Part shown: one piece after another, positions 3,725 through 30,433 of the stretch
Position numbering within the stretch: position 1 is the first letter of the stretch
How the letters are laid out: every line of letters starts with the position of its first letter
NCBI RefSeq assembly: GCF_000734015.1
Contig: NZ_CP008796.1
Span: forward strand, 390,001 to 422,000
Direction: 5' to 3'
Source of the DNA: Thermodesulfobacterium commune DSM 2178
Lineage (GTDB): Bacteria > Desulfobacterota > Thermodesulfobacteria > Thermodesulfobacteriales > Thermodesulfobacteriaceae
Length of the DNA stretch: 32,000 nt
The notes under the pieces: generated by a model
What the model was told of the DNA's origin: nothing
Databases searched by the model: none
Seen by the model: the letters and a program-made list of their open reading frames with translations, nothing else
Translations under genes and position numbers: made by a program

Positions 3725-5099
3725 AATACTGATAGTAGACGATGAACCGATAATTTTGTTTGGTTTATCTCATTATCTTAAGGATCAGGGGTTTGAAGTA
3801 GATACCTGTGAGAAGGGAGAAGAGGCTTTAAAGAAAATAGAAGAACAGAAATTTGATCTATGCATCCTTGATCTTAAACTTCCCGACATAGACGGTATCT
3901 CTTTACTTAAGAAAATTAAAGAAAAACAAGAACAAATAGGGATAATAATGATTACTGCCTTTGCTGAGGTTAAAAGTGCGGTACAGGCTATAAAAGAAGG
4001 AGCTTTTGATTACTTAGCAAAACCTTTTAGTAATGAAGAATTGATGGTTGTAGTTGAAAAGTTTTTTGAGTTTAAAAATTTAAGAAAAGAGGTAAATGAA
4101 CTAAGAGAAAAATTAAGAAAAAAAGAGACTTTAAAACAGATAGTAGGAGAAAGTAAGGCTATAAAAGAGGTAATCAATAAAATAGAGCTTATAGCTAAAA
4201 CAGACGTTCCTGTGCTTATTTTGGGAGAAAGTGGCACAGGAAAAGAGTTGGTAGCAGATTGTATCCAGGCTTTAAGCTTAAGAGCCAAAAACCCTTATCT
4301 TAAAATCAATTGTGCAGCCATTCCTGAAAATCTATTTGAAGCAGAGCTTTTTGGCTATGAAAGAGGGGCTTTTACCGGTGCCCATACTTCCAAAAAAGGT
4401 ATGTTAGAACTGGCTAACAAAGGAACGCTTTTTTTGGATGAAATAGCAGAACTTCCTCAGAACCTACAAGCTAAACTTCTAAGAGTTTTAGAAGACCAAA
4501 CAGTTTATCGATTAGGAGGAGATAAACCTATTAAGGTTGATGTAAGGTTCATCTATGCAACCAGTAAAGACCTAAAACAGTTGGTAAAAGAAGGCAAATT
4601 TAGAGAAGATCTATACTACAGAATAAATGTAATGTCTATAGAAATCCCTCCCCTTAGAGACAGAAAAGAAGATATACCGATCTTGATTAATCATTATTTG
4701 AAATATTTTTCTGAAGAGTTCCAAAGGCCTTTACCTCAGATAACAGAAGAAGCTTTCCAAGCTTTGATAAGATATGATTATCCTGGTAACGTAAGAGAAC
4801 TAAAACATGCCATAGAAAGGGCAGTTTTATTAGCCGTAGACGGCAATATAACTCTAGCCCATCTACCTGAAGAAATAAGCCAGAGTTTTAAATCAGAAAA
4901 AAAAGATGTTTTAGATTATAAACTCGCTAAAGAATCTATAGAAAAAGAATTTATACTTAAAACTTTAATAGAAACCAACTGGAACAAAACCGAAGCAGCC
5001 AAAAAATTAGGTATCAGTAGAAAAACCCTATGGCAAAAACTCAAAAAATTTAACCTTCTTTACCATCACTCAGAGGATGCAATCCAATCAGAAGAGTAG
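3714..5099 (+). CDS. Sigma-54-dependent response regulator (NtrC family: REC, AAA+, Fis-type HTH)
   Basis: 461 aa. REC region is ILIVDDE...LDLKLPDIDG...KP. Walker A is GESGTGKE, the sigma-54 contact loop is GAFTGA, Walker B is GTLFLDEI. Also REDLYYRINV and PPLRDRKEDI. C-terminal HTH is NKTEAAKKLGISRKTLWQKLKK. Confidence 0.93.
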   Translation: MKGRILIVDDEPIILFGLSHYLKDQGFEVDTCEKGEEALKKIEEQKFDLCILDLKLPDIDGISLLKKIKEKQEQIGIIMITAFAEVKSAVQAIKEGAFDYLAKPFSNEELMVVVEKFFEFKNLRKEVNELREKLRKKETLKQIVGESKAIKEVINKIELIAKTDVPVLILGESGTGKELVADCIQALSLRAKNPYLKINCAAIPENLFEAELFGYERGAFTGAHTSKKGMLELANKGTLFLDEIAELPQNLQAKLLRVLEDQTVYRLGGDKPIKVDVRFIYATSKDLKQLVKEGKFREDLYYRINVMSIEIPPLRDRKEDIPILINHYLKYFSEEFQRPLPQITEEAFQALIRYDYPGNVRELKHAIERAVLLAVDGNITLAHLPEEISQSFKSEKKDVLDYKLAKESIEKEFILKTLIETNWNKTEAAKKLGISRKTLWQKLKKFNLLYHHSEDAIQSEE

Positions 5100-5151
5100 C
5101 TCTTAGTTTTTTTAACTTTGAGTTACCCAAAAGAAACACAATCTTCAAAAT

Positions 5152-5171
5152 ATGTTACCATTAGGTAACAT
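5152..5171. promoter_or_regulatory. Perfect 20-bp palindrome, candidate enhancer (UAS) for the adjacent NtrC-type activator
   Basis: ATGTTACC-ATTA-GGTAACAT has 8-bp perfect arms. It lies 82 bp upstream of the -24 GG at 5254-5255. Related half-site-like strings are GTTACC at 5122-5127 and AGGTTATA at 5180-5187. Confidence 0.5.
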
Positions 5172-5252
5172 GCAAAATTAGGTTATAAATTAATAGGGTC
5201 TTAAACTTTAGATTTTTCTACATATTTATAAAAAATAAAATAACAAAATAAT

Positions 5253-5268
5253 TGGTATAGTTTTTGCA
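5253..5268 (+). promoter_or_regulatory. Sigma-54 (-24/-12) promoter
   Basis: TGGTATAGTTTTTGCA has GG (5254-55), N10, GC (5266-67), which is the exact consensus spacing (TGGCAC-N5-TTGCA). It lies 115 nt upstream of the 5383 start codon. Confidence 0.7.
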
Positions 5269-5382
5269 ATTTTTACAACAGAATAAAGACAAATTAGGGG
5301 GGTGAGATTATGAAAAAAGGTTGAAGTTTAAGGAATTGTTTGCCTCTATTTTTAAAAATATTAACAAAAAGGAGGAGGTTAT

Positions 5383-6996
5383 ATGGTAGAAGAGAAAAAG
5401 AAAGGGTTGGTTAATGAAGACTGGTTAGCCTTTTATTTAGCTATTGCTCTAATTATAATTTCTTTCTTATCCTATTTTGGCGTAGATCCTTTTGGTTGGA
5501 CGGTAAAAACCTCAGAATGGGTTTCTCTTGACAAGGCTATAGCACCTCTTAGTAAAGTAGCTATTTCTGGGATAGTATCTTTAATCTTAACCTGGATTTT
5601 TTTAACTGTATTTTTTGCTATTGGAGCAGCTTTTTTGGGGCTTAACGTAGGAAGGTTTATAGTTGGGTTCTTTTTTGTTTTTTGGCTTAGTTATGCATGC
5701 TGGTTGTTAGGACATTATGCCTATTTTGCTGCTACAGACCCAACTAAACACAAAATTCCCTGGTCTCTCAAACTTACCGGGGAAGGTGGACTTATTTTTG
5801 CTTTAATTTTAGGTTTGATTATAGGTAACTTTTTTAGAGGTTTTGCTAATTTTATAAAAGAAGCGGTTTTACCAGAGTTTTATGTTAAGACAGGTATTGG
5901 TTTGATGGGAGCTGTTTTGGGATTAAAATCAGCTGAAGCTTTTGGTCTTGCCTCTGCAGTTCTTTTCAGAGGACTTTGTGCTATAGTTGAGGCTTATCTT
6001 ATTTACTGGGCTCTTGTATATTGGCTTGCAAGAAAATATTTTAAATTTAGTAAAGAGTGGGCAGCTCCTTTAGCTTCAGGTATCTCTATTTGTGGTGTTT
6101 CTGCAGCTATTGCCACAGGAGGTGCCATTAAAGCAAGACCTGTTGTTCCTGTTATGGTTTCTTCTTTAGTAGTTATCTTTGCTGTGATTGAGTTGCTTAT
6201 TTTACCTTTCTTAGCTCGTGAATTTTTATGGCAAGAACCTATGGTTGCTGGTGCTTGGATGGGGCTTGCGGTTAAGACTGATGGAGCAGCTTTTGCCTCT
6301 GGTGCTATAGTGGATGCTTTAATAAGAGGTAAGGCTGAAGCGGTAGCTGGTATTAAGTATGAACCTGGTTGGATCATGATGGCTGCCGCTACCACCAAAC
6401 TTTTCATCGACATTTTTATAAGTATCTGGGCTTTTATTTTAGCTTATATTTGGTGCGCACACATAGAGTGTCAAGAAGGGCAAACAGTTACCGCCAAAGA
6501 GATTTGGCATAGATTCCCCAAATTTGTTTTAGCTTATGCCCTTGGCTTTGTGATTTTCTTGATCATTTCTGCCCCCCATGCTCCTAAGGTAGGAACAGCG
6601 GAACATCAAATAAAAGCTATCCAAAAACAAGTAGAAAAACTTGAAAAACAAGCTGCTACAGCTATCGATCCTGCCATTAAGGAGCAGTTAGCTCAGCAAA
6701 TAGCTACCAAAAAAGCTGAAATTGATGAATTAAAAGCTAGTATAAAAGATTCTAAAAAGATAGTTGACCAAACCAAAACAGCTACTAATGGTTTGAATAA
6801 CTTGAGAACCTTTATGTTTCTCTTTACTTTCTTTACCATCGGTATTATCTCTGACTTCAGAAAACTCTGGGAAGAAGGAATAGGGCGTTTAGCAGTAGTT
6901 TATCTGGTATGTTTGTTTGGATTTATCATCTGGATTGGATTGTTGATTTCTTATATTTTCTTCCATGGGGTAAAACCACCTATAATAGGACAGTAG
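5383..6996 (+). CDS. Polytopic membrane transporter, YeiH/UPF0324 ('putative sulfate exporter') family, with a soluble coiled-coil insertion
   Basis: 537 aa. ...PLASGISICGVSAAIATGGAIKA... and ...AGAWMGLAVKTDGAAFASGA... resemble the two conserved YeiH-family blocks (GTSICGxSA; W.G.s.h...). RBS AAGGAGGAGG precedes the ATG. Residues ~400-475 are a heptad-like charged stretch. Confidence 0.6.
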   Translation: MVEEKKKGLVNEDWLAFYLAIALIIISFLSYFGVDPFGWTVKTSEWVSLDKAIAPLSKVAISGIVSLILTWIFLTVFFAIGAAFLGLNVGRFIVGFFFVFWLSYACWLLGHYAYFAATDPTKHKIPWSLKLTGEGGLIFALILGLIIGNFFRGFANFIKEAVLPEFYVKTGIGLMGAVLGLKSAEAFGLASAVLFRGLCAIVEAYLIYWALVYWLARKYFKFSKEWAAPLASGISICGVSAAIATGGAIKARPVVPVMVSSLVVIFAVIELLILPFLAREFLWQEPMVAGAWMGLAVKTDGAAFASGAIVDALIRGKAEAVAGIKYEPGWIMMAAATTKLFIDIFISIWAFILAYIWCAHIECQEGQTVTAKEIWHRFPKFVLAYALGFVIFLIISAPHAPKVGTAEHQIKAIQKQVEKLEKQAATAIDPAIKEQLAQQIATKKAEIDELKASIKDSKKIVDQTKTATNGLNNLRTFMFLFTFFTIGIISDFRKLWEEGIGRLAVVYLVCLFGFIIWIGLLISYIFFHGVKPPIIGQ

Positions 6997-23385: not shown

Positions 23386-24534
23386 ATGATAAACAATCAC
23401 GTTAAGATTGTAGAGCTGTTTTTTAGTTTTTTAAAACTGGGGTTTACTGCTTTTGGTGGTCCTGCGATGGTAGCTTATATTAAGGAGTTAGTGGTAGAGA
23501 AAAGGGAATGGCTTGATAAACAAACCTTTCAGGATGGGGTAGTTCTTGCTCAGGTTATTCCCGGTGCAACTGCTATTCAGATGGCTGGTTATGTTGGGTT
23601 TAAAACCAGAGGAATTCTCGGAGGTCTTGCCAGTTTTACAGGTTTTGGGTTGCCTGCTTTCTTGTTCATGCTTTTTTTATCTCAGGTTTATGTTAAGACC
23701 CATGACCTTCCAAAGGTTATCTCAGTGTTTACTGGACTTCAAGTAGTAGTGGTTAGCATCGTTGCCAATGCCTTTTTAAGTTTTGCAAGACCTTTAGTTA
23801 ACTCTAAAGCAGAAATGTTTATGGCAATTCTTTCTTTTTTACTTTTATTTTTTAAGGTTAGTCCTTTTTTGATAATTTTTATATGTTTGGTTCTTTCTCA
23901 ACTGGTTTTTAAAGATGTTTCTATCAATAAAACAGAGACTTCAAAGAGGATAAATTATCAAGGTCTTTTAATCTTGATTTTTATTCCTTTTATAGAGTTA
24001 TTCTTTTTATACTTTTGGGATAAGACTCTTTTTAATATTTCTTTAGTTATGATAAAAATAGACCTTTTTGCTTTTGGAGGAGGCTATGCTTCTTTACCTC
24101 TTATGATGCATGAATTTGTAGATAGATTGGGCTGGATTGATAACAGAACTTTCATGGATGGTATAGCCCTTGGGCAAGTTACTCCAGGACCGATAGTGAT
24201 AACAGCCACTTTTGTCGGTTATCTATTAAAAGGTCTTTTGGGAGCTTTGATGGCAACGATTTCTGTTTTTACCCCATCTTTTATTATAATGGCATTATTC
24301 TGCGAGTTTTCAGATAAGATGAATCAATTAAAAATTTTTTTAAAAGCAAAACAGGGAATCTTAGCCTCTTTTTCTGCTTTACTTCTTTTTGTGTTAATTA
24401 AGTTTATAGTTTCTTTAGACTGGAATTTCTTGAAAGCCATGATGGCTATGGTGAGTTTCTTTGCCCTCTATCGAAAGGTTAACCTTGTTTACGTAGTTCT
24501 TATTTCTGTGTTGTTTTCAGCTTTTCTTTTTTAA
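23386..24534 (+). CDS. chrA: Chromate transporter family protein (ChrA, duplicated CHR domains)
   Basis: 382 aa. ...FLKLGFTAFGGPAMVAYIKELVVEKREWLDKQTFQDGVVLAQVIPGATAIQ... appears in the first half. The second-half repeat is ...DLFAFGGGYASLPLMMHEFVDRLGWIDNRTFMDGIALGQVTPGPIV.... Confidence 0.9.
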   Translation: MINNHVKIVELFFSFLKLGFTAFGGPAMVAYIKELVVEKREWLDKQTFQDGVVLAQVIPGATAIQMAGYVGFKTRGILGGLASFTGFGLPAFLFMLFLSQVYVKTHDLPKVISVFTGLQVVVVSIVANAFLSFARPLVNSKAEMFMAILSFLLLFFKVSPFLIIFICLVLSQLVFKDVSINKTETSKRINYQGLLILIFIPFIELFFLYFWDKTLFNISLVMIKIDLFAFGGGYASLPLMMHEFVDRLGWIDNRTFMDGIALGQVTPGPIVITATFVGYLLKGLLGALMATISVFTPSFIIMALFCEFSDKMNQLKIFLKAKQGILASFSALLLFVLIKFIVSLDWNFLKAMMAMVSFFALYRKVNLVYVVLISVLFSAFLF

Positions 24535-24714: not shown

Positions 24715-24732
24715 AACTAATGCAAATTAGTT
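24715..24732. promoter_or_regulatory. 18-bp palindrome between the putative promoter and RBS, candidate repressor operator or 5'-UTR hairpin
   Basis: AACTAAT-GCAA-ATTAGTT has 7-bp perfect arms. It ends 17 nt upstream of the 24750 ATG. Confidence 0.3.
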
Positions 24733-24749: not shown

Positions 24750-27032
24750 ATGTGGGGCAAAAAAGCTTTATTTTTTATTTTGGCTTTAAAAATATTTTTT
24801 GTTTCTAAGGGTTTTGCAGAGGAGATCGATAAGGAAAGGTTGGAAAAAGAGGAATCTTTACCTGAAGTAATAGTTACTAGTGAAAAAATAATTACCCCTA
24901 CCAAAGAGACAGCAGAAACAGTTTATACAGGGATCGGGATCACCAAAAAAGGTATTGAACTATCTGGAGAAAGGGGTAGTAGCAACGTTTGGTCTATCTT
25001 AAATATTTTACCAGGGGTATATTTTGAAACTCCTGATCCTGCAGGTATTTCTTCAACTCAGAGAAGTATAACGATAAGAGGTGTTTCTGGTTCCTTGGGA
25101 ACGATGTCTGTTGAAGGGGTCCCTGTTTACGGAGGAAACCCTATCGGTCCAAGGGAATACATTTTTGATTTAGAAAACTTGGAGGCAATCGATGTCTACA
25201 GAGGGGTTATTCCTGTTGACCTTGGAACAGGTGCAGGAACAAGAGGGGGAACGGTTGAGTTAAAACCAAAATGGGCAAAAGATAAATTTGGGTTTGAATT
25301 TAAACAGGGCTTAGGGATGAATGATTATACTAAAACCTTCTTAAGGGTTGATTCGGGTAAATTACCGTCCTTAGGCACTAAGCTTTCCCTTTCTTATTCT
25401 TATGCAGAGGCAGATAAGTGGAGAGGCAAGGGAAAACTTGGTCCAAGAGAAAACCTAAACTTTACTTTGGTTCAGGCTTTAGGAAATAGAATTAACATAA
25501 AACTTTGGGCAAACTATAATGACCTTGACCATCATAAGTATGCTACTCTTTCATATCCAGATGCTAAGAAAGATAGATGGTTAGACTATAATGAAAACTT
25601 TACGGGCAATTCTACAAAAGATTGGTATTACTATAAATATCAGAAACTTGGATGGACAAATAAAGACTATTATGCCTTTTTAGATATAAAATTGTTAGAC
25701 CAATTGATGCTTCAGATAAAACCTTATTACAGAATAGAAGAAAAAGAGGATTGGAGCGGAACTATAAGCATCTCAGGTCCTATGAGACAAAGTAAACCAG
25801 GAGTAACCTGGAGTGGATGGGAGGTTAAAAGAAAAGGGGCTTTAACTCAACTTGTTTTTGATTTAAAGTTTGTTAGAGGACTTTTAGGTTACCATTACGA
25901 GCTTCAAGAGTGGGATGACAGACCTTCTAAAAACTATTGGTTAAACCCTGATGGTAGCTTAACTTTTATTGGATGGGGTAGATTTACCAAAAGTATTTCA
26001 GATGGCTATTCTTCAAGTCCTTACCTTAAGTTTGCAGGAAACATAGGTAAACTAAACTGGCAAGCAGGTCTTCAATATATAAAGAAAAAAGACGGAAAAA
26101 ATGAAGGATACATTACTCAATACAACGGAACAGTGCCTTACTTGCTAAGAGAGCCTAAACTTGACTATGGTGGAAGAAGTTATTCTGCTTGGGTCCCTTC
26201 CTTTGGTCTTTCATATTCTTTTAATGAAAAAATAGAAGTTTATACAAGCTTTGGTAAAACTTTTCAAACTCCTTATATGTATATGCCTATCGTAAACCTT
26301 TATTATCGCCTTTATGAGAAATTCAAAAAGATGGGCATAACTTTAGATGACCTGTTTAACGATTATAAGTGTGAAGAAACTTATAACTGGGATTTGGGGC
26401 TTAGGATTAGAGCAGAGAAATTTGAGTTATATCCAACTGTTTACTTCTCTAAACACAAAAACTTAAACACGCCTTTTACTCCAGGATGGAAAGATCCTGA
26501 TAACCCTGCCCAGCTTCTGATTGATCCTTCTACTGGTAGACCTGTAAGTTTTAATACCTTTATCGGTAAGGCGAGAGGATATGGTTTTGAGCTTGCTTCA
26601 ACCTTTCATCTTACAGATAAATTTTCCTTATTTTTTAACCCATCTTATGTAAAGATGAAATATGATGGAGACATCATAAGTGCCGGAACTCGTTATCCTG
26701 TGGATGGAAAACAAGTAATAGGAGTTCCAGAAAAGATGCTCACTACAGGACTTATAGCAAGGTATAAAGGTTTTGAAATAGTTCCCAGATTTAGGTATGT
26801 GGGTAGTTACTACGGTAATTTAGCACGTACAGAGAAGGTTTCTGGGTATGAAGTCTTTGATTTGATGGTTTCTTACAATAAAGAAGAAATAAGAAGTTTA
26901 AGGCTCAAAAACCTTAGGTTAACCGTTGAGTTTAACAATCTGTTTGATAGAAGATATATTTTTGGTACCAGCAATAACTATTACCCAGGAACTCCTTTTA
27001 ATGTCTTTGGGTCTATATCCTTTAATTTTTAA
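24750..27032 (+). CDS. TonB-dependent outer-membrane receptor
   Basis: 760 aa. The signal peptide is ...ALKIFFVSKGFA. The TonB-box/plug start is LPEVIVTSEK. The plug region is ...ILNILPGVYFE...ITIRGVSG...VPVYGG...LENLEAIDVYRG. A long beta-barrel follows, with a terminal ...ISFNF aromatic residue. Confidence 0.9.
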   Translation: MWGKKALFFILALKIFFVSKGFAEEIDKERLEKEESLPEVIVTSEKIITPTKETAETVYTGIGITKKGIELSGERGSSNVWSILNILPGVYFETPDPAGISSTQRSITIRGVSGSLGTMSVEGVPVYGGNPIGPREYIFDLENLEAIDVYRGVIPVDLGTGAGTRGGTVELKPKWAKDKFGFEFKQGLGMNDYTKTFLRVDSGKLPSLGTKLSLSYSYAEADKWRGKGKLGPRENLNFTLVQALGNRINIKLWANYNDLDHHKYATLSYPDAKKDRWLDYNENFTGNSTKDWYYYKYQKLGWTNKDYYAFLDIKLLDQLMLQIKPYYRIEEKEDWSGTISISGPMRQSKPGVTWSGWEVKRKGALTQLVFDLKFVRGLLGYHYELQEWDDRPSKNYWLNPDGSLTFIGWGRFTKSISDGYSSSPYLKFAGNIGKLNWQAGLQYIKKKDGKNEGYITQYNGTVPYLLREPKLDYGGRSYSAWVPSFGLSYSFNEKIEVYTSFGKTFQTPYMYMPIVNLYYRLYEKFKKMGITLDDLFNDYKCEETYNWDLGLRIRAEKFELYPTVYFSKHKNLNTPFTPGWKDPDNPAQLLIDPSTGRPVSFNTFIGKARGYGFELASTFHLTDKFSLFFNPSYVKMKYDGDIISAGTRYPVDGKQVIGVPEKMLTTGLIARYKGFEIVPRFRYVGSYYGNLARTEKVSGYEVFDLMVSYNKEEIRSLRLKNLRLTVEFNNLFDRRYIFGTSNNYYPGTPFNVFGSISFNF

Positions 27033-27056
27033 AAGTAAAAAAAGGGGGGTTATAAA

Positions 27057-27890
27057 ATGAAAAATCTTAAAAAAATTTTATTTTTAAGCTTCTTTCTCAT
27101 AAGTTTAAATTTTTCCTTGGCTCAAGCAGAAGGTAGACTTTATCTTGTTAGCACCGGGGTTGGAGACCCTGATAATTTGACCTTAAGGGCTTATGAAGTT
27201 ATCAAAAAAGCTGATGTTATCTTTTGCAGTAAATGGACTTGTGAAAGGGTAAAAAATTTAATTGAGGGAAAGGAGGTTTATGATGCAGGATTTGGTATTT
27301 TTCATCTTTTTTATCGAAAAGATAGAGGGAACCCTAAATCTCAGATAGAAATAAAGTCTTTAAGTTTTGATGAAAAAGAAAAAAGAAAAGAGCTTGAAAA
27401 GATAACCAAGATCATAAGAGAAGCTGTTAAGCAAGGTAAGGTGGTAGCCGTTCTTGAAGACGGTGATCCTACTATCTACGGTCCACATATATGGTATGTG
27501 GAGGCATTTAAAGACTTAAACCCAGAAATCATTCCTGGGGTTAGTTCTTTTAATGCAGCTAATGCTGCTATAAGAAAGAGCATCACCGGAGGTAAGGCCC
27601 AAAGTGTAACCCTTGCTGCAGGATTTTCTGACCTTGAGGCCCTTGCTAAAACAGGCACAAACCTTGTTATTTTTACCATGAGAATAAAAGACATAACTGA
27701 AGTTTTAAAGAAGATAGAAAAATATTACTCTCCAAAAACTCAAGTAATCTTTGTTTTGCATGCTGGTTATAAAGAAAAGGAAAGGGTTATAGCTGGAACC
27801 TTTGAAGATATCTATGAAAAAATCAGAGGAATTCAACTTCCTTTTGAATATTTAGTGTATGTGGGGGATTTTGGAGATTTTGATGAATAA
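27057..27890 (+). CDS. Tetrapyrrole-methylase-fold protein (CbiF/CobM precorrin-4 methyltransferase-like) carrying an N-terminal signal peptide
   Basis: 277 aa. MKNLKKILFLSFFLISLNFSLAQA is a typical Sec signal with an AxA site. The mature part has LYLVSTGVGDPDNLTLRAYEVIKKADVIF, VAVLEDGDPTIYGP, IIPGVSSFNAANAA and EYLVYVGDF, which are colinear with CbiF/CobM blocks. Confidence 0.7.
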   Translation: MKNLKKILFLSFFLISLNFSLAQAEGRLYLVSTGVGDPDNLTLRAYEVIKKADVIFCSKWTCERVKNLIEGKEVYDAGFGIFHLFYRKDRGNPKSQIEIKSLSFDEKEKRKELEKITKIIREAVKQGKVVAVLEDGDPTIYGPHIWYVEAFKDLNPEIIPGVSSFNAANAAIRKSITGGKAQSVTLAAGFSDLEALAKTGTNLVIFTMRIKDITEVLKKIEKYYSPKTQVIFVLHAGYKEKERVIAGTFEDIYEKIRGIQLPFEYLVYVGDFGDFDE

Positions 27891-29238
27891 AAATGTTACT
27901 CAAATTGAAATTAACTATGGATTTAAGGAAGAAAAACTGGTTTTAAAAAGAGAGATAGGGCTTATTCCTGCTATCATGCTTGTTGTGGGAAACACCGTAG
28001 GAACAGGTATTTTTACCACCTCTGGATTCATTATAAAGGAACTTAGAGATCCAGTGGCTCTTCTTTTTCTGTGGCTCTTAGGAGGTCTGATTGCTTTTTT
28101 TGGTGCTCTTAGTTACGCTGAGCTTGGTAGACTTTTTCCTCGGGCAGGAGGAGAATATGTTTTTTTGAAGGAAACTTTTGGCGAGATTTTTGGATTCCTT
28201 GCTGGCTGGATTTCGCTTATCGTTGGTTTTTCTGCTCCTATTGCTGCAACAGCTATTGCCTTTTCAAAATACTTCTTAGAACTTTTTTCCATACAAACCT
28301 CAGAACTAATCTCCAAACTTTTAGCTGTATCAGTGATTTTACTTCTTTCTTTAGTTCATACCCAACGAATTAAAATAGGGGCTAATTTTCAAACAGGAAT
28401 AACTCTCTTTAAAGTTTTTTTTCTTTTTACCTTTATTTTCTTTGGATTCATATACGCTAAAGAAGGAATGACTAACTTTGAGATCGGAAGTTTAGTTCCA
28501 AAAAAAGAGGCACTATTAAGCTTAAGTTTTCCTGTTTCTCTTATCTATGTTATGTATGCCTACAGTGGATGGAATGCTGCAACCTATATAGGAGAAGAGA
28601 TAAAAAATCCACAAAAAAACATTCCTTTAGCCCTTTTGTTAGGAATTTTAGTGATTGCAACTTTGTATCTGGGGACAAACTACCTTTATGTTAAAGTTCT
28701 TTCTTTTGAAGAGATGGCTGGCGTTGTGGAGTTAGGGGCTAAGACAGCCGAAAAAGTTTTTGGAAAAGAACTTTCTTTTATTTTTACTGCTGGTATTACC
28801 TTGGGACTTCTTTCTGTTTTAAGTGCTATGATACTTGCCGGACCAAGGGTATATTATGCTATGGCAAGGGATGGGGTATTCTTTAAAGTATTTTCAAAAA
28901 TTCATCCAGAAAAAAAGACCCCTATTTTTTCTATACTCCTTCAAGCACTAATTGCTATTTTTATGGTTTTGACTTCAACCTTTGAAGCTCTTCTTCTTTA
29001 CATAGGATTTACTTTATCTCTATGTGCAAGCCTGACAGTTTTAGGTCTTATGAAACTTAAGAAAAAATTTATTTTCTCAGCTTTTGCTTTTATTTTGGTT
29101 AACCTCTGGATGATTATTTTTACTATCGTTACTAAGCCTCTAACCCTTTTAGCAGGAATGTTAACTATCTTAGCAGGCTTAACACTGTATTATTTCAAAT
29201 TTAATCAAAAATTAAAAACAAAGGGGGGTAAAGCATGA
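27883..29238 (+). CDS. APC-superfamily amino acid/polyamine-type permease
   Basis: The track ORF starts at 27859. I prefer ATG 27883 because GGAGA lies 6 nt upstream and it gives an ATGAATAA overlap with the upstream stop. The protein has ~12 TMS and the N-terminal block ...LIPAIMLVVGNTVGTGIFTTSGF.... Another block is ...YAYSGWNAATYIGEEIKNPQKNIP.... Confidence 0.8.
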   Translation: MNKNVTQIEINYGFKEEKLVLKREIGLIPAIMLVVGNTVGTGIFTTSGFIIKELRDPVALLFLWLLGGLIAFFGALSYAELGRLFPRAGGEYVFLKETFGEIFGFLAGWISLIVGFSAPIAATAIAFSKYFLELFSIQTSELISKLLAVSVILLLSLVHTQRIKIGANFQTGITLFKVFFLFTFIFFGFIYAKEGMTNFEIGSLVPKKEALLSLSFPVSLIYVMYAYSGWNAATYIGEEIKNPQKNIPLALLLGILVIATLYLGTNYLYVKVLSFEEMAGVVELGAKTAEKVFGKELSFIFTAGITLGLLSVLSAMILAGPRVYYAMARDGVFFKVFSKIHPEKKTPIFSILLQALIAIFMVLTSTFEALLLYIGFTLSLCASLTVLGLMKLKKKFIFSAFAFILVNLWMIIFTIVTKPLTLLAGMLTILAGLTLYYFKFNQKLKTKGGKA

Positions 29239-29951
29239 AAAAATTTATTTTAAGTTTGGTTTTTATGTTTTTAACTTTTTTGTTCTGGGTAAAGATCGGT
29301 TTTTGTCATATGCTTTGGATAGAAGAAACTGACGGAAGGTTTAAAGTTCTTTGGGGACATAAAGGGAAGGTCGAATCTTATAATCCTGCAGCAATAAAAG
29401 AAATTAAAGCTTTTGATAAAAAAGGAAAATCTGTAACACTAAAAAAAGAAATAATTAATAACCAACTCCTTCTTTCAGGTAAAGAAAAGCCTTCTTTAAT
29501 CCTTGCTTCTATGGATGGGGTTTATCTGGTTACTACACCAGAAGGGAGAAAAAGAATGGATAAAATTGAAGCTCAAAAACAGGGTTTGCAAGTGGTAGAA
29601 AGTTTTTATGTGATTCAAGCAACCAAAGCAATTTTTACAGATTCATCTCTTCTAAAAAAACCCTTAGGATTAAAGCTTGAACCAGTTTTTGTAGAAACTC
29701 CATATGAAAGAAAAGACGAAGTTGTAATAAAGGTCTTATATGAAGGTAAACCAGCTGAAGGTGTAACCATTTTTAACCCTTTTCATAAAGAATTAGCTAA
29801 AACTGACACAAATGGGATAGCAAGAATAAGGGTTGAAGACCTTAAGATGAAAGAAAATTACTATGCCTTGGTGTGTTTTTATAAGTTAAAGATTTCAGAC
29901 CCTAAAGCTGACTATCTCTGGCTTATTACCTCTCTTACCTGGCAAAGATAA
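29235..29951 (+). CDS. Exported DUF4198-like (NikK/COG5266-type) putative periplasmic metal-binding protein
   Basis: 238 aa. After the signal peptide, HMLWIEE immediately follows the predicted cleavage region (the H-x-x-W start typical of DUF4198). The C-terminal beta-sandwich is ...VLYEGKPAEGVTIF...TDTNGIARI.... ATGA overlaps the upstream stop. Confidence 0.5.
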   Translation: MKKFILSLVFMFLTFLFWVKIGFCHMLWIEETDGRFKVLWGHKGKVESYNPAAIKEIKAFDKKGKSVTLKKEIINNQLLLSGKEKPSLILASMDGVYLVTTPEGRKRMDKIEAQKQGLQVVESFYVIQATKAIFTDSSLLKKPLGLKLEPVFVETPYERKDEVVIKVLYEGKPAEGVTIFNPFHKELAKTDTNGIARIRVEDLKMKENYYALVCFYKLKISDPKADYLWLITSLTWQR

Positions 29952-29977: not shown

Positions 29978-30433
29978 ATGAAGAAGGTTTTGTTATTAAC
30001 ATGTTTTTTACTGTGTATAAGTTTTTTGGAAAAAATGTTTGCTCATGAGGTTAGTTATCAGGTAAGAGAAAGGGAGGGTATTTGTGTAAGTTTCTTTTTT
30101 GCAGATAAATCACCGATGAACTATGCAGAGATAGAAGTTTATTCACCAGATGAAAAAATACCTTTTCAAAAAGCAAGGACTGATAAAAACGGGATTTTTT
30201 GTTTTATGCCAGATAAAAAAGGTATTTGGAAGGTTATAGCGAAGGGAGAGACAGAACACGGGCTTCATAGTACAGAGATTGAAATAAAAATAAAGGATAA
30301 TTTAGATATAGCTCACTTTAAGAAGCCACTTATCGCTTCCCATATAAGGTTTTTTATCGCTTTTGGAATTGCAGGGTGGATTATAGGGATAACGGGTATT
30401 TATCTGTTCTTAAGGTCAAGAAAGTCTATTTAG
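29978..30433 (+). CDS. Small exported beta-sandwich protein (carboxypeptidase-regulatory/transthyretin-like) with a C-terminal membrane anchor, unknown function
   Basis: 151 aa. The signal peptide ends ...EKMFA followed by HEV. ...EIEVYSPDEKIPFQKARTDKNGIFCFMPDKKGIWKV... is the beta-sandwich region. The C-terminal TM is FFIAFGIAGWIIGITGIYLFL. Confidence 0.5.
   Translation: MKKVLLLTCFLLCISFLEKMFAHEVSYQVREREGICVSFFFADKSPMNYAEIEVYSPDEKIPFQKARTDKNGIFCFMPDKKGIWKVIAKGETEHGLHSTEIEIKIKDNLDIAHFKKPLIASHIRFFIAFGIAGWIIGITGIYLFLRSRKSI

Follow-up and report, generated by a model that had tools for sequence, protein, structure and literature searches.

A predicted exported tetrapyrrole-methylase-family protein of Thermodesulfobacterium commune, its coupled permease, and a tentative case for S-adenosylmethionine in the periplasm

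The subject of this work is a gene in a 32,000-nucleotide (nt) stretch of the genome of Thermodesulfobacterium commune DSM 2178 (contig NZ_CP008796.1, positions 390,001 to 422,000, forward strand; the whole stretch is hereafter the window, and positions are counted from its first letter). The open reading frame at 27057–27890 on the + strand encodes a 277-residue protein of the tetrapyrrole methylase (TP_methylase) superfamily, which we refer to as the methylase. The reading we favor, and to which we give a little less than an even chance, is that the methylase is a catalytic periplasmic methyltransferase that would be supplied with S-adenosylmethionine (SAM) through the amino-acid-type permease encoded by the gene overlapping its own. 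The evidence that carries this reading is a predicted signal peptide that is conserved in homologues across phyla, a preserved cofactor pocket, and the company that the permease subfamily keeps in other genomes.

Export, fold and cofactor pocket of the methylase

The initial annotation of this locus had assigned the protein a Sec signal peptide and a fold colinear with the precorrin-4 methyltransferases CbiF/CobM, and both assignments stand. The relevant features are as follows.

27041–27049, + strand: Shine-Dalgarno-like run AAAGGGGGG (direct sequence reading)
27057–27128, + strand: predicted Sec signal peptide of 24 residues, MKNLKKILFLSFFLISLNFSLAQA, predicted cleavage AQA↓EG (sequence rules; leader present in 112 of 120 homologues)
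27129–27890, + strand: mature TP_methylase-type domain, 253 residues plus stop (Pfam PF00590 at 142 bits; AlphaFold2 pLDDT 84.3; Foldseek matches to CobM/CbiF; invariant cofactor motifs)

The purine-rich run AAAGGGGGG ends 7 nt 5' of the ATG, and the strength of this Shine-Dalgarno run supports 27057 as the true start of the methylase. The N-terminus reads MKNLKKILFLSFFLISLNFSLAQA followed by EG, with three lysines in a basic n-region, a 13-residue hydrophobic core and an A-x-A (AQA) cleavage site; since the leader contains no twin arginine, it should be of the Sec/signal peptidase I type. Before the methylase domain there is one other in-frame start, a TTG at codon 21, and no ribosome-binding site precedes it. 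A protein database search returned 602 relatives of the methylase at E ≤ 1e-5, and among the 120 best (45–99% identity) a hydrophobic N-terminal segment precedes the conserved LYLVSxGxGD start in 112, the remainder being mostly fragments. Some clade members have a lipobox in place of the Sec-type leader. On the strength of sequence rules and leader conservation, we take the methylase to be exported via the predicted Sec signal peptide.

Residues 27–252 match the Pfam TP_methylase profile over its whole length (profile positions 1–211 of 212), scoring 142.3 bits against a gathering cutoff of 27.8, and the CbiF/CobM-like motifs quoted in the initial annotation are present. For the mature protein, AlphaFold2 gave a model from 71 homologues with a pLDDT of 84.3 and a pTM of 0.78, low in confidence only in a clade-specific insert; it predicts two alpha/beta domains with class-III methyltransferase topology. 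The top Foldseek matches to this model are CobM/CbiF (TM-score 0.7–0.8, 22–24% identity), with CysG, SUMT and CbiL close behind and a probability of 1.00 for all five.

The likeness to CbiF/CobM (precorrin-4 C11-methyltransferase, TIGR01465; PDB 1CBF, 4E16, 3NDC) extends to the class-III two-domain fold and to the GxGxGD, GDPxxYG, PGVSS and A-(T/G) motifs, whereas the window protein differs in its identity of only ~24%, its Sec signal peptide, an insert of ~30 residues (residues ~76–108, after strand 3), a deletion of ~10 residues after the QSV motif, invariant blocks of its own, and a setting among receptor, permease and DUF4198 genes rather than in a cob/cbi operon. The best NCBIfam equivalog, TIGR01465 (cobM_cbiF), scores 91.7 bits against a cutoff of 259.65 and matches residues 109–270 only, that is, the C-terminal half; the remaining tetrapyrrole-methylase equivalogs all fall far under their cutoffs. 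Because of this sub-cutoff score and because the window holds no cob/cbi genes around the methylase, the protein is best assigned by sequence to the TP_methylase superfamily and not to housekeeping CbiF.

The first Gly-rich SAM loop had been described as altered, a description that rests on a misalignment: STGVGDPDNLT aligns without gaps to GAGPGDxELIT of CbiF/SUMT and is of normal length, its differences from the canonical loop being a Ser in place of the first Gly and a variable residue (V35) in place of the Pro. Across phyla, G34, G36, D37, G136, D137, G142, P143, G161, S163, M208, A236 and G237 are invariant or nearly so, and the clade as a whole keeps the cofactor motifs GxGD, GDPxxYGP, PGxS and AG(Y) invariant alongside conserved blocks specific to it (KExxDxGFGxF, FxDLxP, FNxANAA, FTM and YxGDF). 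The SAM and S-adenosylhomocysteine (SAH) contacts of R. capsulatus CobM are Pro10, Asp83, Ser112, Leu165 and Ala193. Mapped through the 4E16 alignment, four of these five fall on conserved residues (Asp83 on D137, Ser112 on S164, which is Ser or Cys, Leu165 approximately on M208, and Ala193 on A236), while Pro10 falls on the variable V35. The comparison with CobM, which the initial annotation had proposed as a check, indicates that, as far as sequence shows, the cofactor pocket is preserved. A metal site within the methylase was also considered and rejected, as neither His residues nor Cys pairs are conserved.

The cassette and the company of its permease

The methylase is the second gene of a five-gene cassette in which a TonB-dependent receptor comes first and an APC permease, a DUF4198 protein and a NikL-like protein follow.

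24750–27032, + strand: TonB-dependent outer-membrane receptor, 760 residues, first cassette gene (Pfam Plug and TonB_dep_Rec_b-barrel; under all NCBIfam subfamily cutoffs)
27883–29238, + strand: LAT-like APC permease, 451 residues from ATG 27883 or 459 residues from ATG 27859 (Pfam AA_permease_2 at 181 bits; TIGR00911 at 243 bits)
29235–29951, + strand: DUF4198 periplasmic metal-binding protein (Pfam PF10670 at 48.9 bits)
29978–30433, + strand: NikL-like membrane-anchored beta-sandwich protein with a C-terminal transmembrane helix (NCBIfam NF058648, NikL family, at 49 bits, sub-cutoff; weak DUF4198 C-terminal match)

The initial annotation described the methylase as translationally coupled to both receptor and permease. 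For the permease, a carrier of the amino-acid type with 12 transmembrane segments, this is borne out, since its start overlaps the methylase stop by 8 nt (ATG 27883) or 32 nt (ATG 27859); the receptor ends 24 nt upstream of the methylase and so shares its operon with no overlap. The DUF4198 gene in turn overlaps the permease stop by 4 nt.

Signal-peptide cleavage is expected to leave an N-terminal His on both downstream proteins (…IGFC↓HMLW in the DUF4198 protein and …KMFA↓HEVS in the NikL-like protein), as on their homologues, and DUF4198 homologues show A↓H-x-(L/I)-W at this point. Among characterized DUF4198 proteins, Zcp binds zinc and IsDUF4198 binds nickel via the N-terminal His left by cleavage. 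The NikL-like protein occurs in 24 family loci, and natural fusions of permease and NikL-like protein exist as variants of ~620 residues. Given these His-headed proteins and natural fusions, we read the cassette from its sequence as a TonB-dependent transition-metal system. Its two downstream genes, N-terminal His residues and association with a TonB-dependent receptor resemble the DUF4198/NikK-NikL systems (Zcp of Neisseria, IsDUF4198, and NikKL of Nik(MN)QO), with the difference that here the DUF4198 and NikL-like proteins are coupled to an APC permease and an exported methylase in place of an ECF/ABC importer of nickel or zinc.

Thermodesulfovibrio, Desulfobacterales, Desulfuromonas and others have the same set of genes, in many cases together with TonB/ExbB/ExbD and signal-peptide FmdE-like proteins. 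Counting partners within 6 kb of exported family members with flanks of 4 kb or more on either side (n=45), we find a permease at 36 loci, often with a 4-nt overlap, a TonB-dependent receptor at 35, and at least one cassette partner at 40. None of the cassette partners is found at the seven loci checked for forms without a leader. The exported forms of Planctomycetes depart from the pattern in having none of these partners close by.

To see the permease from its own side, metagenome contigs were searched with an alignment of it, which yielded subfamily members 39–76% identical to the window permease. A TP_methylase lies within 3 kb of the permease at 19 of 55 loci, so that the subfamily is not dedicated to TP_methylase. 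At the 46 loci with full flanks, the partners within the same distance are TP_methylase (14), Methyltransf_3 (8) and LCM (5), all with signal peptides, and at least one of these families is found at 27. A Pfam batch scan of the 77 immediate same-strand neighbours of the permease gives a similar picture, with TP_methylase (13) and Methyltransf_3 (12) the commonest and DUF4198 at 8. The Methyltransf_3 partners are class-I O-methyltransferases of ~225 residues (76–83 bits) with signal peptides, encoded 6–15 nt upstream of the permease on the same strand at 11 loci; they retain SAM motif I (EIGTSTGHS) and a DADKxxY motif, which we take to be the catalytic motif of caffeoyl-CoA and catechol O-methyltransferases. 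LCM-family methyltransferases of ~330 residues, also with signal peptides (139–148 bits), adjoin the permease at seven loci, an LCM fragment is among the partners at the remaining permease loci, and a signal-peptide Methyltransf_11 stands beside the permease at one further locus (L167).

Judged by these leaders and domain assignments, the permease subfamily is recurrently paired with signal-peptide SAM-dependent enzymes of unrelated folds. Since the only thing these exported partners share is the SAM cofactor, a route for SAM to the periplasm through the permease becomes plausible. The database sources name the permease only generically ("amino acid permease / APA antiporter").

Several single observations from the permease loci may be recorded here. 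At one locus two genes run divergently from the permease (L163:4000-4818 and 4922-5566, both on the − strand), coding for a protein-isoaspartate O-methyltransferase (PCMT, 225 bits) and a further class-I methyltransferase, each with a hydrophobic leader, a pair that hints at periplasmic protein repair. At another, the gene 34 nt downstream of a permease from this subfamily codes for a radical-SAM protein (L099:3731-4843) whose leader (MNQESRRQFIKSCFYLAISGFG…; SRRQFIK) is of the textbook twin-arginine kind and which may be a Tat-exported enzyme. In Bacteroidota-like contigs, the signal-peptide Methyltransf_3 and the permease form a tight two-gene unit in that order (L144, L146, L149, L150, L152, L153, L158, L162, L165, L166 and L171; for example L150:5363-7443), often flanked by a PMT_2 glycosyltransferase and a 144-residue protein; at three of the Methyltransf_3-permease loci there follow a small Cys/His-rich membrane protein, a TonB-dependent receptor and a small DCxNC protein resembling a heavy-metal-associated domain. 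Signal-peptide esterases of Pfam PF00756, a family that includes siderophore esterases, adjoin the permease at three loci (L138:3344-4204 and L140:4107-4967, both on the − strand, and L164:561-1427).

Further observations concern the cassette itself. The fusions (P0305, P0327; L172:5856-7721) consist of permease, an extra transmembrane segment, then …ALA↓HGTEG…, a beta-sandwich and a final transmembrane segment, and the L172 cassette reads ExbB, ExbD, TonB, DUF4198, TonB-dependent receptor, an unassigned gene (x), TP_methylase, permease::NikL, FmdE and FmdE. At 11 Desulfobacterales loci, the operon continues past the permease, NikL and FmdE genes with a fusion protein of ~1080 residues (for example L072:13754-17002), joining an MFS-like region with multiple transmembrane segments, a spermidine-synthase-like domain and TPR repeats. 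The topology of this protein was considered as a separate sign that SAM or decarboxylated SAM is used in the periplasm; a crude hydropathy count yielded 11–13 transmembrane segments and no such evidence. A disulfide link between methylase and permease in the style of eukaryotic LAT/4F2hc was considered and rejected, as the single Cys of the window permease lies inside a transmembrane helix and the proteobacterial subclade does not conserve C57 of the methylase. Directly upstream of the cassette and on the same strand lies a ChrA chromate-transporter gene (23386–24534), which keeps this position only in the closest Thermodesulfobacterium genomes (L005, L006) and is probably unrelated to the cassette.

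Spread of the clade and regulation of its loci

The phylogenetic distribution of signal-peptide TP_methylases, another of the checks suggested at the outset, turns out to be broad. With one genome counted per species, the clade is found in at least 201 species belonging to Thermodesulfobacteriota, Proteobacteria, Planctomycetota, Spirochaetes and Bacteroidales. Among them are Thermodesulfobacteria, Desulfobacterales, Desulfovibrio, Desulfobulbus, Geobacter, Desulfuromonas and cable bacteria, as well as Chromatiaceae, Thauera, Alcaligenaceae, Marinobacter, Halomonas, Planctomycetes, Spirochaetes and Bacteroidales; in the same survey, the window is 100% identical to Thermodesulfobacterium thermophilum DSM 1276 over the match. 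In a library of representatives at 50% identity, the clade comprises ~50 clusters at E ≤ 1e-30 and 228 at E ≤ 1e-10. As far as leaders can tell, export is a property of the clade, and its members are almost always exported; the databases name them "SAM-dependent methyltransferase", "tetrapyrrole methylase" or "precorrin-4 methylase". One signal-peptide member is filed under the eukaryote Anaeramoeba flamelloides (P0164) and most likely comes from its sulfate-reducing bacterial symbionts.

Desulfobacterales loci often carry two to four methylase paralogues, and three exported paralogue groups can be distinguished, all with leaders and all keeping the cofactor motifs. Desulfobacterales loci also encode proteins of ~560 residues that have one signal peptide followed by two tandem TP_methylase domains, both with the clade insert, here containing a Cys pair (L056:3492-5171; also L029, L060, L064, L068, L072, L074, L075, L077, L080 and L084).

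Leaderless forms of 251–266 residues account for ~30 of the 109 representatives of the proteobacterial subclade. They are 55–65% identical to the exported members and have the same motifs. Their genomic context was checked as a clue to the methyl acceptor, and no conserved partners of these sister genes emerged; they are stand-alone genes. In Marinobacter and Halomonas, a leaderless member shows translational coupling to a DHA2 efflux pump, and a regulator of the CueR/MerR type is encoded divergently (L066:8009-10750, L073); single cases include a variant fused to a GST domain (P0216), a member upstream of a BCCT carrier (L089:6001-8955) and one beside a LysR regulator.

Upstream sequences give little indication of how the cassette is regulated. 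Rfam finds no riboswitch, of the cobalamin or any other kind, upstream of the window cassette, either at the gathering threshold or at an E-value threshold of 1, and none at seven other, taxonomically spread loci. Consensus scans for Fur, Zur and NikR and a palindrome count over 76 upstream regions did no better than shuffled sequence, and footprinting of six upstream regions of the Thermodesulfobacteria type returned AT-rich similarity only. In the window, a perfect 7-4-7 palindrome (AACTAAT-gcaa-ATTAGTT, 24715–24732) lies between a promoter-like region and the ribosome-binding site of the receptor; it is kept in T. hveragerdense (L006), is not conserved in more distant relatives, and may be an operator or a hairpin in the 5' untranslated region. 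As for the receptors, the FRAP/NPNL signature of haem receptors is absent from that of the window and, among partner receptors, is found in none of 15 TBDT2 members, none of 8 of the Thermodesulfobacteria type and 5 of 45 of the Desulfobacterales type.

Competing explanations and implications

In the reading we favor, the permease would move SAM out of the cytoplasm into the periplasm, with exchange against the product SAH as the most economical mode, and the methylase would turn over in this compartment, which is unable to make SAM. The methylation would most likely serve TonB-dependent acquisition of a trace metal of the Ni/Co/Zn type, because the periplasmic components of the cassette would bind transition metals via their N-terminal His. 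More speculatively, the methyl acceptor might be an imported metal chelate or, less likely, a periplasmic metal-binding protein, and methylation might help to hand the metal over to DUF4198/NikL. A wider proposal, which we regard as doubtful in this full form, is that gram-negatives run a periplasmic SAM chemistry in which a LAT-type APC permease would export SAM for SAH and so feed Sec- or Tat-exported methyltransferases (TP_methylase, catechol-O-methyltransferase-like, LCM and PCMT) and possibly radical-SAM enzymes; in the TonB cassettes, methylation of donor groups of the chelate (carboxylates, catechols or the macrocycle) would release the metal to the His-headed chaperones DUF4198/NikL.

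Carriers that exchange SAM for SAH are known to feed compartments lacking SAM, such as CTL843 of Chlamydia and mitochondrial SAMC, and SAM3 of yeast is a SAM carrier of the amino-acid-permease family. The likeness of our case to CTL843, the Rickettsia SAM transporter and SAMC is that SAM-dependent enzymes are found where SAM is not made, together with a dedicated membrane carrier. These systems differ in that they import SAM into a cell or organelle by means of DMT or mitochondrial-carrier proteins, whereas the window permease is a LAT-like APC protein for which the proposed direction is from cytoplasm to periplasm. What marks such a supply system, namely exported SAM-dependent enzymes tied to a carrier, is found for the permease subfamily, with localisation read from leaders only. 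Caulobacter CciT/CciO was examined as a possible earlier case of an enzyme in the periplasm that draws on a co-substrate from the cytoplasm, and was set aside, as CciO is cytoplasmic.

A number of points weigh against periplasmic SAM supply. The support is comparative genomics throughout, and localisation is read from leaders. The Pro of the GxGPGD loop is replaced in the methylase by the variable V35. At 19 of the 46 permease loci with full flanks none of TP_methylase, Methyltransf_3 or LCM lies within 3 kb, the counts of permease-methyltransferase pairing stand without a background rate for signal-peptide methyltransferases beside APC permeases, and exported members of the Planctomycetes have no nearby permease, so that the pairing is frequent and not obligatory. 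Neither a metal-specific regulator box nor a riboswitch was found in the scanned upstream regions. The permease, fused or adjacent to NikL-like metal-binding modules as it is, could instead carry a metal-amino-acid chelate. In addition, periplasmic SAM could leak through porins, and SAM is heat-labile while the host is a thermophile.

That the fold has been recruited as a non-catalytic periplasmic handler, binding an imported tetrapyrrole, corrinoid or metalloporphyrin or stripping its metal for DUF4198/NikL to take, was close to the initial annotation, which held a methyltransferase role to be unlikely and favored a tetrapyrrole or corrinoid binder. It has real attractions: the closest structures are tetrapyrrole methylases, the gene adjoins a TonB-dependent receptor (35 of 45 loci), the receptors of Desulfobacterales, Geobacter, Desulfovibrio and Chromatiaceae score 240–286 bits on the haem subfamily TIGR01785, just under its cutoff of 317, loci may hold several paralogues and tandem double-domain forms, and periplasmic SAM is not known. 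Precedents exist as well: such a handler would resemble exported CbiK-type and CobN-type homologues of loci that scavenge haem. Periplasmic CbiK of Desulfovibrio is an exported homologue of a B12-pathway enzyme. IhtB (CbiK-like) and HmuS of Porphyromonas are exported homologues of this kind in TonB-dependent loci that scavenge haem or metal (PMC12094164). All three, like the window methylase, place a cytoplasmic tetrapyrrole-pathway fold outside the cytoplasm in connection with a TonB-dependent receptor, but they are chelatase folds that need no cytoplasmic co-substrate, whereas the methylase has a fold that depends on SAM, keeps its cofactor pocket intact and comes with a dedicated carrier for small solutes. 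Invariant cofactor-pocket residues would be needless in a binder of a different ligand, and cytoplasmic sister forms have the same pocket. Hallmarks of haem or corrinoid scavenging are missing from the window locus (no FRAP/NPNL, which is rare in partner receptors too; no riboswitch, nor a cobalamin riboswitch at any of the eight loci including the window; an APC carrier in place of an importer of large substrates). The tight coupling to an inner-membrane carrier of the amino-acid type, too small for corrinoids, would go unexplained, as would the pairing of the same carrier with unrelated exported methyltransferases. We consider the ligand handler unlikely, and the argument against a methyltransferase role is not supported, given the conserved pocket, the cytoplasmic sisters and the pairing of the permease with other SAM enzymes.

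Marginally less improbable, to our mind, and still an unlikely account, is one of import, in which receptor and permease take up an amino-acid-like metal chelate (for example metal-histidine or an opine-type metallophore) and the methylase-like protein processes or presents the ligand, SAM arriving by some other route or the SAM-like pocket binding the amino-acid moiety of the ligand. Receptor, periplasmic protein and inner-membrane carrier follow one another as in a classical import system. The permease, similar to the LAT family, carries a GTG motif for amino-acid binding in its first transmembrane segment, and His-headed metal-binding modules are fused to it or lie beside it; one Desulfobulbus locus shows regulation of the FecI/FecR type that chelate receptors typically have, and the exported esterases beside the permease at three loci belong to the Pfam family of siderophore esterases. 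Import of this kind leaves unexplained both the intact catalytic and cofactor motifs and why one permease subfamily should be accompanied by SAM-dependent enzymes of five or six unrelated folds, PCMT and a radical-SAM enzyme among them, and APC carriers normally work without periplasmic binding proteins. An annotation artefact, that is, a true start downstream or an ordinary cytoplasmic CbiF, we hold to be highly improbable. The TTG at codon 21 would indeed yield a leaderless protein, and cobM_cbiF is the best NCBIfam family; against this stand the strong Shine-Dalgarno run before the ATG and none before the TTG, a leader (in some cases a lipobox) in 112 of 120 homologues across phyla, a score of 92 bits against a cutoff of 260 with half of the TIGR01465 model covered, the clade-specific insert, and the missing cob/cbi neighbours.

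To our knowledge, the periplasm is generally regarded as lacking cytoplasmic co-substrates (ATP, NAD(P)H, SAM), and a literature search turned up no account of TP_methylases that are exported, of methyltransferases that use SAM in the periplasm, or of SAM exporters in bacteria. The methylase belongs to a fold family already known, in a compartment and a setting that are new, while a periplasmic SAM supply would be new at the level of the system. The recurrent exported SAM-enzyme neighbours of the permease suggest that bacteria can deliver SAM outside the cytoplasm. If the permease does carry SAM, it would be the first bacterial SAM carrier of the APC family, and methylation would join the reactions that take place outside the cytoplasm. 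Hundreds of misannotated genes for a "SAM-dependent methyltransferase" or "precorrin-4 methylase" would then be explained, and a new step in the TonB-dependent acquisition of trace metals would come to light in sulfate reducers, purple sulfur bacteria and other inhabitants of places where sulfide binds the metals.

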